Below the pieces are notes generated by a model. The model ran no database searches. It was not told the origin of the DNA and was given only the letters and a program-made list of their open reading frames with translations. Made by a program: the position numbers and the translations under genes. A stretch of DNA of 61,052 nt from a virus (Duplodnaviria > Caudoviricetes), in the IMG/VR virus record IMGVR_UViG_3300046780_000585, positions 1 through 61,052 of that record. One strand, 5' to 3'. This document shows positions 39,133 through 44,834 of this stretch, piece by piece; position 1 is the stretch's first letter; each line of letters begins with the position of its first letter.

Positions 39133-39714
39133 CTAGAACAGCCCTCCCGCAATCAACATCGTCGAGTAAGGGCCGGTCATGCCGGTTGAACCGGTAGGGC
39201 CGGTCGCTCCGGCCGTGCCTGCGCCACCAGCAGCACCTGTCATGCCGGTTGGCCCCGTCGTTCCAGGCGCTCCAGCACCGCCAGCCGAACCAGCTTGACC
39301 TGTAGCACCAGTCGGCCCGGTCGCCCCCGCCGATCCGACGCCGCCGCCTGCACCTACAGCACCTGTCGAACCCGATGGGCCGGTCGCTCCCGTCGATCCA
39401 ACACCAGTCGGACCCGTCGGTCCCGAACCACCGCCACCCGCGCCTGTTCCAGTTGGCCCAATGGCTCCCGTCGGACCCGTCGCACCAAGTCCGGTCGGCC
39501 CGGTTGATCCTGTATTGCCAACCGGGCCCAATCCGCTCGGCCCGGTCGGTCCGATCGATCCCGTGAGCCCGGTTGCTCCTGTCGGTCCAGACGGTCCTGC
39601 CGGTCCTGTCGTAACTCCAACAACCCACACACCCCGCGACGTGTAGGTGTAGGTCACGCCGCCATACGTGTAAGTCTGTCCTACCGACGGAGAACTGGGG
39701 AAATCGATCGGCAT
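39133..39714 (-). CDS. Collagen-like fibre protein
   Basis: [13 protein letters not shown] followed by GXT repeats. Confidence 0.8.
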
Positions 39715-40523
39715 CAGACCACCCACCCCGGAAGCAGCAGCGTCACCGCTCCACCACTACCACCTCCGCCAGGCCCGGTCGGTCCCGCCAGCGGCGGTGC
39801 CACCTGCACCCACTGCGTGGAATTGCCGTCGTCGATCCAGATCGACAGGATGCCGGTCGTCAGATCGTACCAGAGATATCCCGGTGTCGGAGAAGCCGGC
39901 GGCGTGCTCGAGCCCGTGTAACCACCGCCACCGCTCCCACCCCCGCTTCCCGCGGCTCCCGTCGGCCCGGTCGCACCCGTATTGGCAGCCGACCCGCCAG
40001 GGCCTGCAGGACCCACCACCCCCTGTGGACCAGGCGCTCCAGTAGGCCCAGCGGCTCCAGCTGCACCGGCACCCCCGGCTGTACCCGACGGACCGGTGGC
40101 GCCCGTGTTGACTGCGGTGCCCGGTGTTCCAGTCGGTCCGGTCTGCCCGACGCGCCCGGTCGGACCCGTGGCACCAGTCGCACCAGTCGCGGACGCCACG
40201 CCAGGGATGCCCGTAGGACCCGTAGAGCCCGTCGGCCCGAGCCCGCTGGCTCCCGTCGCGCCCGTTGGTCCAAGCGTCCCGACACCCACCGGGCCAGTCT
40301 GCCCGATCGATCCCGTCGGACCCGTGATTGCCAGGCCGGTTGGCCCGATTGATCCCGTCGGTCCAGTGAACGCGCCAAGTCCGGTTGGACCGGTAGCCGC
40401 CGCTCCGGTAGGACCCGTAGGACCGGTGCCACCCGTCGGACCGCCAGCCGGACCCGTATGCCCGCCGACAACCACGACCGGTCGCGTCGACACGATGGCA
40501 GGTTCGTTCTTTATGACCGCCAC
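39714..40523 (-). CDS. Collagen-like fibre protein
   Basis: GXT repeats; [18 protein letters not shown]. Confidence 0.8.
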
Positions 40524-42086: not shown

Positions 42087-42104
42087 GTTAACAATGGGCG
42101 TACC

Positions 42105-44805
42105 TTATCCGCCCGAGATGACCTGCGCCTGACAGAGCGCAGTTCCGTCGATTACCTGATCCTTTATCTTCATAACGAGACGCTACTCTCGCTACCGCCT
42201 TTCGGCTGCTGCATGTTCCCATGCAGAGGAGACTATATCATCACCCACTTGGGGTGCCGGGCGCTTCGGACCGCTTGGTCCTACGAGCTTGCGCTCTAGT
42301 CGTTGCACCTTCCGCTCACGCGGCTTGGCTCAGGATTGGCCGGTCTGGCGTTCCCCTGAATTCACCCGGTTGTTCGATGCCGATTACTCGGCAAAGGGAC
42401 TTCAAGATTGTTAATCCGTACACCTGCAGGCCGCGAAGGATCTGACCAAACGTTAGCTCAGAGCGCAGAGTCTCGAGTTTCGAAATTTGCGATGCGAACG
42501 TAATCCCGTGGGCGTGGCCAGCAAAGATCGGAAACTCGCCCGCTGAGAAGTTGGCTGAATCGCTCGCGTTGGTCGGCAGCAGGTTCGAGATATACAACGT
42601 GAATCGATCAATCATTCCGAGCCGGCCATTGCGCAGCATCGAGACCGGATCGCCCGACAGATAGGCCTGCCTGAGTTCCGACTGCTTGATCTGTCGTCCG
42701 GCCCACGCCGGCATCACCACCCAGCGGCCGACCTCCGGGATGTTCTGCTCGTCGAGGCACTCCCCCATGCGCAGAAGCAGATCAATCAGATTGGACTGAC
42801 CGGCCGTCGCACCCTGCCCGACCACCGTGATCGGCGTGCCCTTGATGCCGAGGTTGAGATTGGCGTACTTCCCGGCCGTCGCGCCGCGGTTGGTCGCCGC
42901 GCATTGCCCGACGATGCCGTCGAGCACTTCCGTGTCGACCGCGATCTTTAGCTGCTGTGCCGCATCCCTTATCTTCATAACGAGACGCTACTCTCGTTAC
43001 CGCCTTTTGGGCTGCTGCATGTTCCCATGCAGAGGAGACTATATCATCACCCCTTTCGGGGGCCGGGCGCTTCGGACCGCTTGGCCCTACGAGCTTTCGC
43101 TCTAGTCGTTGCACCTTCCGCTTGCGCGGCTTGGCTCAGGATTGGCCGGTCTGGCGTTCCCCTGAATTCACCCGGTTGTTCGATGCTAATTGCTCAAGCA
43201 AAGGGACTCTGACGAATCCGACCAAATAGACAGGACATTCAGATCGCTCTGCACCTCCATCACGTCGTCGAGGATCAGAGAGAAGTAAAAGCCGTTGCCG
43301 ATGTAGAGTTCGACCGAGCCTCCAGTCGGTCGATCAAGACCGAGCAAACCGTCCGCCTGATACTTGCGGATCGTGATCGTAGGCTTCGTCCGGATTTTCA
43401 CCCGGTCGCCTTGGTTCGCGATTTCGCCTTCGTAGTCGGTCGCTAGCGTCTCAGGCGCTTACCTGATCTGCTTCCCACTGTCGCTTACGCTGTTGCGCAC
43501 CAGGTCCCATGAACGACGGAATATCACGTACCGTCGCCAGAAGCCTGGCCACTTCAGCGCCCGGACCACTCAGTCTGTGCGGCTGGACTTGGAGTTGTTT
43601 CATCGCCAATTGGATACGCTCCGCGTCGCGGAAATGTCCCATCCTGGCGCAACCAATAAGAAAATACGCCTGATCGTTCTTGAGCACCATGTGCTTGGCC
43701 AATGCAGTTTTACCGCTCTCGAACATCGAGCGGACTTTGGCCGCGTCCATAGACAGCACCCAATTAACCATCGACGTACCATTCTCGGTTACAAACTCCT
43801 GAACGGATCCTCCGTAAGCCTTCTGCAACAGATCGATACCAACCCGTTCGAAGGCTTCATCGCATACCGAAAGCACCGGCTGTGCCGACATGCCCTTTGG
43901 AATGCGAATTGCAAACGATCCGTTCCCGTCGATATATCCGGCTGCCCATTTTCGTGTCGGATGTTTCGGCATTGGAGATGCGCCTCGCGCTGCATCAAAC
44001 CGCTGCTTCCCCACCTGCACGTCCATAACCTCGCCGTTCATATCGATGGCGCAGTCGGCAAGTGCTCTTTTCAAGACCAGGAACTTGCGAAGCCGCATCA
44101 GAACGCTGACAGCCTTGGTGCCCGCTGTATTCCAGTGAAAAGCACCACTCTTTTCATACATTCCAATATGCCCCCACACTTTATCGAGTGAAGGCGGCGT
44201 CAGACTGGACGCAATCAACTCCATGAAACTACGACCCGGTGCTTTCTGACAAAACGAAACTACAGCGTAAGCACGCTGCGGCCCTGTTCCGTCCCAGTTT
44301 TCGCGCCGCATCGGTGGATTCCACATCAACTGAATGCTTCCATCGCTATCCAACAGTCCTGCAAGGTACTTGTCGCTGAGCCGGTCCTTGCCTCTGGTTC
44401 CCTTCGGTTCCAGTTTTTCAGGTCCGGTATTGCTCGAACTACCGTTTAATTCGAGATCGCGCTCAACACGGTTGAGGCGTAGCTTTCCGACAAAAGCCGG
44501 ACCGACTATCGCTTCAGGGGCAACCCCTGCTGGATCACTTAGTCTGTGCGGGTGCGTGCTCATGCTTCCCTCGGGTTCCAGCCAACTATGAAGGTTCCCG
44601 TTTTTCAGATCCAGTTTAAAGAAGTCCTAGCGAACTTCTCGACCAGCTTAGCTGCATTCAGAACTGATCAAATTTGGCCAGCTTGGAACCAAATTTCCGG
44701 AATAAAGCCCGTTGATTGGAGTAGGTTTCCGGTAGACCCTACGGGGGTCAGGGGCGGGACTGAGCCTGACGTTGCGCCAGGAAAACCCGCACTCGGGATA
44801 GGCAT
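42105..44805 (-). CDS. Major capsid protein, six exons: 44805-44688, 44654-44633, 44482-44449, 43440-43216, 42966-42414, 42160-42105 (335 aa spliced)
   Basis: Joined exons total 1008 nt with no internal stop: ..GFIPEIWSAKLVEKFYASTVLSAISNTDYEGEIANQGDRVKIR..WSDDAAQQLK..RGLQVYGYQVIDG..*; follows the scaffold gene. Confidence 0.92.
42161..42413 (-). mobile_element. Group I intron 5 (253 nt, no ORF, IA-like)
   Basis: Exon GGAU pairs with IGS GUCC; P3 CCGGGU/GCCCGG; P7 GACUA/UAGUC; two extra hairpins after P7; terminal G. Confidence 0.92.
42967..43215 (-). mobile_element. Group I intron 4 (249 nt, no ORF, IA-like)
   Basis: Exon GGAU/IGS GUCC; P10 CGUC/GAUG; CAACGACUA..GAUAUAGUC; near-identical to intron 5. 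Confidence 0.92.
43441..44448 (-). mobile_element. Group I intron 3 (1008 nt) carrying a LAGLIDADG ORF
   Basis: P1 CUCGAAU/GUUCGAG; P10 CGGU/ACCG; P3 CCGGACC/GGUCCGG; P4 CUGG/CCAG; P7 5' CAGACUG; terminal G. Confidence 0.88.
43451..44563 (-). CDS. Double-motif LAGLIDADG homing endonuclease/maturase
   Basis: YLAGLLDSDGSI and WAAGYIDGNGSF; the ATG lies in intron 2. Confidence 0.88.
   Translation of the reverse strand: MSTHPHRLSDPAGVAPEAIVGPAFVGKLRLNRVERDLELNGSSSNTGPEKLEPKGTRGKDRLSDKYLAGLLDSDGSIQLMWNPPMRRENWDGTGPQRAYAVVSFCQKAPGRSFMELIASSLTPPSLDKVWGHIGMYEKSGAFHWNTAGTKAVSVLMRLRKFLVLKRALADCAIDMNGEVMDVQVGKQRFDAARGASPMPKHPTRKWAAGYIDGNGSFAIRIPKGMSAQPVLSVCDEAFERVGIDLLQKAYGGSVQEFVTENGTSMVNWVLSMDAAKVRSMFESGKTALAKHMVLKNDQAYFLIGCARMGHFRDAERIQLAMKQLQVQPHRLSGPGAEVARLLATVRDIPSFMGPGAQQRKRQWEADQVSA
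44483..44632 (-). mobile_element. Group I intron 2 (150 nt, minimal)
   Basis: P1 AGAAGUU/GACUUCU; P3 CUGGAUC/GAUCCAG; P4 CGGG/CCCG; P7 CAGACUA/UAGUCG; P8 CAGGGG/CCCCUG; P9 CCGGC/GUCGG; terminal G. Confidence 0.9.
44655..44687 (-). mobile_element. 33-nt core-less group I-type mini-intron (intron 1)
   Basis: UCCAAGCUGGCCAAAUUUGAUCAGUUCUGAAUG; 9-bp P1 with U.G at the splice site; 5-bp P10; terminal G; contains an in-frame UGA. Confidence 0.8.
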
Positions 44806-44808
44806 GAG

Positions 44809-44834
44809 GGTAGCTCCATCGCTTGGGAGCTACC
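44809..44834 (-). promoter_or_regulatory. Hairpin sequestering the capsid SD
   Basis: GGTAGCTCC-CAAGCGAT-GGAGCTACC ends 3 nt before the ATG. Confidence 0.65.

Follow-up and report, generated by a model that had tools for sequence, protein, structure and literature searches.

A candidate helper-dependent, core-less group I intron of 33 nt in the major capsid gene of an uncultured phage

Group I introns are defined as self-splicing, and loss of the catalytic core in an essential gene is assumed to be lethal short of precise deletion of the whole intron. The nearest described systems are degenerate group I introns of 56-81 nt in fungal nuclear small-subunit (SSU) rDNA (Phialophora PaSSU, 67 nt; Porpidia; Arthonia); P1, P7, P10 and an intron-to-3'-exon pairing termed 'PM' are described for introns of 63-75 nt, and the 67-nt intron is named as the smallest for which group I activity has been shown (Harris and Rogers 2011, PMC3160393). 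A second system is engineered, group I spliceozymes having been reported to excise core-less introns in trans (Amini, Olson and Muller 2014, PMC4094466). Here we describe a 33-nt insert in the major capsid gene of an uncultured phage, located in the IMG/VR virus record IMGVR_UViG_3300046780_000585, of which the entire analysed stretch of 61,052 nt is referred to as the window. The window is a 61-kb phage genome that is complete or nearly so (97% by CheckV); among named phages, those closest to it infect Rhizobium and are of the RHph_TM27A type. The insert carries the substrate signals of a group I intron, recurs in related capsid genes and is followed by a small full-length intron that may supply the missing core.

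The capsid gene runs from 44805 to 42105 on the minus strand and is split into pieces, as determined by tblastn using the RHph_TM27A capsid protein and an uninterrupted metagenomic homologue. Exon 1 terminates in GAAATTTGGT at 44688 and is followed by the insert (44687-44655), which contains an in-frame TGA at 44670-44668; the capsid frame then picks up with CAGCTAAGCTGG at 44654. The RHph_TM27A protein shows an 11-codon gap exactly at the insert, the insertion point is where uninterrupted homologues show IPEIWSAKLVEKF, and the uninterrupted contigs L005, L012 and L018 show IPEIWSAKLVEKFYAS across the site; joining 44688 to 44654 restores the consensus Ser codon. The original prediction, made from the sequence of the window by itself, had placed a frame-restoring insert with an in-frame TGA at these borders, and the alignment gap, the three uninterrupted genes and the gene model bear this out.

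Within the insert, a 14-nt guide (44683-44670) is complementary to the exon borders on both sides, 9 nt at the end of exon 1 and 5 nt at the start of exon 2. Its P1 part (44678-44670) forms 9 bp with 44696-44688, with a U.G pair (44688/44678) at the 5' splice site that is the sole non-Watson-Crick position of the guide pairing, while its P10 part (44683-44679) forms 5 bp with 44654-44650 and directly precedes the P1 part on the 5' side, the arrangement of genuine group I introns; the last base of the insert, 44655, is G. Both strands of the window were scanned for this signature (P1 of at least 9 positions including the U.G, an adjoining P10 of at least 5, a terminal G and an insert of 25-60 nt), revealing one match, the insert site, relative to 0.045 matches in each mononucleotide-shuffled genome (9 in 200 shuffles). 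At looser thresholds (7 and 4) the window gave 8 matches versus 0-6 per genome in 20 shuffles, so that only the full-length guide is distinctive. The 33-nt insert is real and its signature far from chance. Separately, Gly-rich collagen-like repeats at about 39400-40000 (minus strand) appeared among low-scoring tblastn hits and are a source of chance guide-signature matches.

No catalytic core was found inside the insert, in which only 15 nt follow the guide, and its minimum-free-energy fold contains P1 and a pairing of the tail described below as the tether, with no residual P7 or second internal helix within the 33 nt. A search of Rfam at E<=10 over 44850-43300 gave no group I match, just one chance small RNA match. 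The claim that the insert has no room for a core thus stands. Other routes to an open frame were tried and rejected: all three frames are closed inside the insert, which excludes rescue by frameshifting; deletion between the flanking AAGCTGG repeats takes out 35 nt and shifts the frame; and removal of 205 nt (insert, exon 2 and intron 2) as a single intron gives a frameshifted product.

The gene model that follows comprises six exons and five intervening sequences of 33, 150, 1008, 249 and 253 nt, each preceded by U and ending in G. The joined exons encode a capsid protein of 335 aa with 82% identity over 335 residues to the uninterrupted L018 protein.

Exon 1: 44688..44805, minus strand; 118 nt, ATG at 44805, last base (44688) the U of the U.G pair; its translation matches residues 1-39 of uninterrupted homologues.
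P1 of the mini-intron, exon strand AAATTTGGT: 44688..44696, minus strand; partner GCCAAATTT at 44678-44670; present in the minimum-free-energy fold.
Mini-intron, core-less, 33 nt: 44655..44687, minus strand; P10 guide 44683-44679, P1 guide 44678-44670, in-frame TGA 44670-44668, tail strand of the tether 44669-44662, terminal G 44655.
Exon 2, 22 nt: 44633..44654, minus strand; P10 strand 44654-44650, tether strand 44648-44641, exon strand of the helper P1 44639-44633.
Intron 2, 150 nt, proposed helper: 44483..44632, minus strand; P1 guide 44626-44620, terminal G 44483; no Rfam match.
Core helices of intron 2, minus strand: P3 44614-44608/44536-44530; P7 44546-44540/44508-44503, read by eye, with 44544/44504 as its guanosine-site pair; P8 44529-44524/44520-44515.
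Exon 3, 34 nt: 44449..44482, minus strand; encodes YASTVLSAISN.
Intron 3, 1008 nt: 43441..44448, minus strand; homing-endonuclease-like open reading frame (ORF; phrog_5046), core related to intron 2.
Exon 4: 43216..43440, minus strand; from tblastn and the gene model.
Intron 4, 249 nt: 42967..43215, minus strand; RF00028 match 43241-43015; missing in L085, L086 and L087.
Exon 5: 42414..42966, minus strand; phrog_267, major head protein.
Intron 5, 253 nt: 42161..42413, minus strand; RF00028 match 42429-42209; missing in L085, L086 and L087.
Exon 6: 42105..42160, minus strand; stop TAA at 42107-42105.

Introns 4 and 5 are ordinary RF00028 matches in Rfam and the only RF00028 introns in the window. 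A Pfam search gave no match for the intron 3 ORF, capsid exon 5 or the upstream 352-aa ORF.

The original prediction had proposed a search of related capsid genes for short inserts, and this was productive. The same 33-nt insert occurs in five IMG/VR contigs (the window, L010/84, L011/85, L013/86 and L087), and in the other carriers it is likewise followed by the same 22-nt exon and then the same 150-nt intron. Variation among the copies is confined to a single position of the P1 loop and a single position of the tether. Between the window and L011, the 30 nt upstream contain 5 synonymous differences while the 9-nt exon strand of P1 is identical. Furthermore, analogues of 34-40 nt lie 10 nt upstream in five contigs representing three sequence types (L004 and L327, 35 nt; L015, 34 nt; L016 and L017, 40 nt). 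Their insertion site, IP|E, falls between the Pro and Glu codons of IPEIW, and their guide, GATCTT for the 3' exon and GGGGATG for the 5' exon with a U.G pair, fits that site and is accompanied by a terminal G; the layout of P1, U.G, P10 and terminal G is common to the L004, L015 and L016 analogues. The substrate signals claimed for the window therefore hold in four independent sequence versions, which are distributed over two sites and all have a guide matched to their respective exons. Ten contigs carry a mini-intron in all, and in 10 of 10 a full intron lies downstream of it.

This recurrence bears on the reading that the insert is never removed, the gene being dead or truncated, the TGA being read through with 11 extra residues, or the insert being an assembly artefact. 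The length of the window insert would suit readthrough (33 = 11 x 3, so the frame is kept), and all the data are metagenome assemblies. The analogues, at 34, 35 and 40 nt, are not multiples of 3, so readthrough could not rescue them, and TGA, which closes 40 of the 75 long open frames, is the commonest terminator in the window. Ten contigs and the sequence variation among them make an assembly error unlikely. The dN/dS ratio (non-synonymous to synonymous substitution rates) over 248 codons of exons 4-5 was 0.085, 0.154 and 0.152 between 33-nt carriers, whose capsid genes are up to dS 0.5 apart, and 0.067-0.211 over all 55 pairs, uninterrupted genes included; the carriers are under purifying selection. 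With the window genome 97% complete by CheckV as a further point against a dead gene, we regard permanent retention of the insert as very unlikely.

A related reading keeps the insert in the mRNA and has it bypassed by hopping ribosomes, in the manner of T4 gene 60. Such hopping requires matched take-off and landing codons and a stop after take-off (bioRxiv 10.1101/2022.08.31.505936). By eye, L016 would suit it, having UGG followed by UGA, 37 nt before an exon UGG that is itself preceded 3 nt upstream by GGAG, and a hop between them would yield a protein of normal length. In the window, by contrast, the codon before the TGA is ATT and no ATT, ATC or ATA landing triplet was seen by eye in the exon frame; and the sole matched pair, GCT...GCT, has a take-off codon followed by GGC, neither a stop nor a rare codon. 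L004 and L015 showed no in-frame matched codon pair, again by eye. Bypass elements of the gene 60 type further have a take-off stem-loop whose 5' arm contains the take-off codon, a mini-SD ahead of the landing site and a nascent-peptide signal; in the window the 5' arm of the P1 hairpin does include a TGG (44690-44688), one for which there is no landing partner. Hopping needs no two-exon guide, U.G pair or terminal G, yet 4 of 4 types have them, and we consider it distinctly unlikely. That group I chemistry in one form or another removes the insert from the RNA is in our judgement quite probable.

Lacking a core in its 33 nt, the mini-intron would be unable to catalyse its own removal. The nearest core is that of intron 2, which begins at 44632, 22 nt downstream of the insert. 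The minimum-free-energy fold of intron 2 contains P1, P3, P4-P6, P8 and P9, a P7 was read by eye (CAGACTA with TAGTCG), and relative to its homologue in L015 compensatory changes are found in P3, P8 and P9; introns 2 and 3 have a 20-nt core motif in common. An exact 23-mer of the intron 2 core, a search that detects close relatives only, was found in six viral contigs including the window, all of which have a mini-intron 22-23 nt upstream. If active, intron 2 at 150 nt would be among the smallest group I ribozymes. In L004 and L016 the corresponding introns are RF00028 members, and thus the satellite arrangement is not bound to one ribozyme family.

In all four mini-intron types the tail pairs with an exon stretch that adjoins the P1 of the next full intron, a pairing we call the tether (in one type with a 1-nt overlap). 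Its significance was assessed from the best helix between tail and exon 2, using 20,000 shuffles of each tail. In the window, 44669-44662 pairs with 44648-44641 over 8 bp, 1 nt from the exon strand of the helper P1 (p=0.007); the L011 variant also forms 8 bp (p=0.004), the lone tail substitution among the 33-nt copies converting a U.G to a C-G pair. The L015 tether has 6 bp, 2 nt from the helper P1 strand (p=0.04), and that of L016 has 11 bp, 1 nt away, with a partner located 62 nt into its 81-nt exon 2 (p=0.0001). The L004 tether has 12 bp including 4 G.U pairs and shares 1 nt with the P1 strand (p=0.0014 irrespective of position). The minimum-free-energy folds of all four types contained the tether together with P1, P3, P4-P6, P8 and P9 of the helper. 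Exon 2 of the window is thereby fully used, with nucleotides 1-5 in P10, 7-14 in the tether and 16-22 in the helper P1. Moreover, the mini-intron, exon 2 and intron 2 together span 205 nt and follow the order P1-P2 (the tether)-P2.1 (the helper P1 hairpin)-P3...P9 of one group I intron, so that docking of the mini-intron P1 into the intron 2 core would be topologically ordinary.

These features suggest the following scheme, in which splicing, the role of intron 2 as catalyst and the order of events are what we infer. The mini-intron would be a remnant that has lost everything between the P1 hairpin and its last ~15 nt, keeping the guide for P1 and P10 and the terminal G. The tether (44669-44662/44648-44641) would set it 1 nt from the P1 exon strand of intron 2, whose core, 22 nt downstream on the same transcript, would excise it by two transesterifications. 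The first 3' splice site would lie in the 'P2' loop and be held at the active site by P10, coding sequence being embedded in both 'P2' and 'P2.1' of the composite fold. Once the mini-intron is gone, the core would refold, the helper P1 would dock and intron 2 would excise itself. A helper-dependent, degenerate group I intron served in cis by intron 2 is an interpretation to which, on the sequence evidence, we give a little better than an even chance. The borrowed core of the original prediction has accordingly gained support, from a tether beside the P1 of the next full intron in every version. That interpretation is the best available; here it is narrowed to cis action of intron 2 in a composite fold and widened to a class of elements that recurs.

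The original prediction also named introns 4 and 5 as possible sources of the core, and these can be set aside. The three 33-nt carriers L085, L086 and L087 lack both, their capsid alignment being contiguous from residue 58 or 59 to 335, and no RF00028 match was found in these whole records (11, 36 and 43 kb; 17-70% complete); introns 4 and 5 are thus dispensable. More generally, group I removal might use a catalyst in trans or one other than intron 2, such as intron 3, free excised introns or another ribozyme of the phage or host. Intron 3 is present alongside each 33-nt copy; L052 has intron 3 alone at the same site. Its P7 is a difficulty. Group I introns bind guanosine at a G-C pair in P7; at the expected pair intron 3 has, by eye, a G-G mismatch in the window (43576-43570/~43477-43471), L015 and L052. 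Either the P7 assignment is wrong or the site is unusual, and the mismatch makes intron 3 a poorer catalyst candidate than intron 2. In L016 the nearest full intron is 81 nt off, which would be compatible with a catalyst elsewhere, and engineered spliceozymes show, both in vitro and in E. coli, that a group I core working in trans can take out an intron devoid of its own core (PMC4094466). The tether adjoins the P1 of the next intron in each type, however, and the window holds just two RF00028 introns, which relatives live without; we find another or trans-acting core unlikely.

The ORF of intron 3 reaches beyond that intron. As 370 codons (44563-43451, minus strand), this homing-endonuclease-like frame starts at an ATG inside intron 2 after GAGGGAAGC and crosses exon 3 in another frame into intron 3; with its start inside intron 2, the protein could come only from unspliced RNA. 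It is open in 4 of 4 carriers checked (the window, L011, L087 and L015), despite different helper and exon lengths in L015, and in L052, with intron 3 alone, the endonuclease-like ORF has its own ATG.

Alternatively, the mini-intron and nearby exon sequence might form a self-sufficient minimal ribozyme, like that claimed for the 67-nt fungal PaSSU intron. The window has the fungal-type features P1, P10 and an intron-to-3'-exon pairing (the 8-bp tether, p=0.007), which resembles 'PM', and the fungal 67-nt intron is reported to splice in vitro only with ~300 nt of exon included (PMC3160393). The 33 nt show no candidate P7 or guanosine pocket, and a full intron lies downstream in all 10 carrier contigs; self-sufficiency is, in our estimate, highly improbable.

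Several observations weigh against excision by intron 2. Intron 2 falls below the RF00028 gathering threshold, has no Rfam match even at E<=10 and has a very small P4-P6, so that its catalytic competence is unproven. The mini-intron P1 is present in 2 of 4 minimum-free-energy folds (the window and L015), with a long-range alternative in L004 and L016. The tether-partner position in L004 and L015 also pairs weakly in full-length relatives, and thus the closeness of tether and helper P1 in these two types may be inherited rather than selected. Contigs of two RNA runs (word share 0.05 each) compared with 42100-44810 cover only 42661-42846, away from the insert, and contain no joints, a result that is neutral on splicing. 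The bypass-type codons found in L016 alone count against a single mechanism for all types. Accession series are alike for most carrier contigs, which may therefore stem from one sampling campaign. As to the chemistry, the freed 33-mer could remain on the ligated exons through 14 + 8 bp, and direct splicing between the 5' splice site of the mini-intron and the 3' splice site of intron 2 could compete, with loss of exon 2 and a frameshift as the outcome. A natural group I intron that processes a second substrate pair was not found in a literature search from which subscription journals were mostly absent.

The relatives also suggest where such elements come from. At the IP|E site other contigs have an ORF-bearing intron of ~690-770 nt (L028, L033, L040/41, L375-377 and L379), and L368 has an ORF-less intron of ~300 nt with a compensatory change in P1 (TATCCCT with GGGGATA); the tail of the L004 mini-intron and the 3'-terminal hairpin of L028 have the 9-mer GCTGACCGC in common. 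With full-length and ORF-less introns at the site of the analogues, the mini-introns look like internal deletions. The simplest reading of these sequences is a decay series of homing introns, from ORF-bearing to ORF-less to core-deleted; the unusual point is that the core-deleted stage persists in an essential gene. For the 33-nt type, no full-length ancestor at the window's own site was found among viral contigs. A P1 pattern that allowed loops as long as 30 nt gave 22 matches, of which those in capsid genes were the 4 known carriers only. The 14-mer guide gave at least 118 matches in viral contigs, and a gapped P1 pattern at least 118 in metagenomes, with none in capsid context among the matches listed in either case. 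A longer gapped guide pattern recovered 5 viral contigs, and genome contigs gave no match to the 33-nt type and 20 to the upstream type, none of the 20 in capsid context. On these data satellites would have arisen at a minimum of two sites and in at least four sequence types within the capsid family, and they may persist by occupying, and so protecting, the endonuclease target site. That one group I core serves two introns in turn through a composite fold, with satellites arising repeatedly by internal deletion of homing-endonuclease introns, is a broader proposal on which we are evenly divided.

The surrounding coding sequence is an intron hot spot. Across relatives, capsid codons 36-64 contain six insertion sites in ~85 nt of coding sequence, located after IP, IW, LV, KF, SN and DY/EG (window 44700-43430; L004, L015, L016, L028, L047, L052 and L368), and a single gene may have up to three introns there, separated by exons of 22-34 nt. 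A comparison of window 44830-42050 with L087 revealed a mosaic, in which identity is 98.7% over the first 1609 nt (exon 1 to exon 4, mini-intron and introns 2 and 3 included) but only 89.7% in exon 5; this would be consistent with the intron block having recently moved by homing with co-conversion.

If the proposed dependence on intron 2 is correct, the insert would be the first non-autonomous group I intron found in nature and, with its 33 nt, the smallest of the class. The intron life cycle would gain a satellite stage comparable to that of non-autonomous transposons, and engineered trans-acting group I ribozymes would have a natural counterpart, with one small ribozyme (150 nt, or 205 nt with its satellite) handling two pairs of substrates in a fixed order. 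Such capsid genes are annotated as fragments, since neither gene callers nor Rfam pick up the 33-nt insert or the 150-nt helper.

The original prediction knew of no phage precedent. Neither a phage mini-intron nor a natural helper-dependent group I intron was found in the literature, subscription journals being mostly outside the search; short degenerate group I introns as such do have a precedent in the 56-81-nt fungal rDNA introns (PMC3160393). As in the window insert, P1 and P10 are kept there and P3-P6 and P8-P9 are gone; the fungal introns are likewise regarded as derivatives of full introns at the same site, formed through deletion or unequal crossover, and their splicing likewise needs outside sequence. 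They differ in size (56-81 nt, compared with 33-40 nt for the phage mini-introns), in location (eukaryotic rRNA genes rather than a protein-coding gene) and in having a P7 proposed inside the intron, whereas none is visible in the phage insert; the fungal case invokes no neighbouring full intron as catalyst. Spliceozymes resemble the proposed system in that a core removes a core-less intron with both splice sites recognised by base pairing, although they are artificial, act in trans and carry the guides on the ribozyme, whereas in the phage the mini-intron itself bears the guide and the catalyst is proposed to act in cis (PMC4094466). The 50-nt coding gap of T4 gene 60, with its mobA cassette, is likewise a short, non-coding, stop-bearing insert in an essential phage gene; it is solved by hopping at matched codons, which the window insert lacks while having P1, P10 and a terminal G. 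Finally, in Twort orf142, a multi-intron phage gene, cross-reacting ribozymes reportedly cause exon skipping; tandem-intron engineering belongs to the same kind of system. These systems have in common with the window close-set group I introns in one phage gene and splice-site reactions between introns; every intron in them has its own core, however, and cross-reaction is a side product, whereas for the 33-nt mini-intron it would be a requirement.

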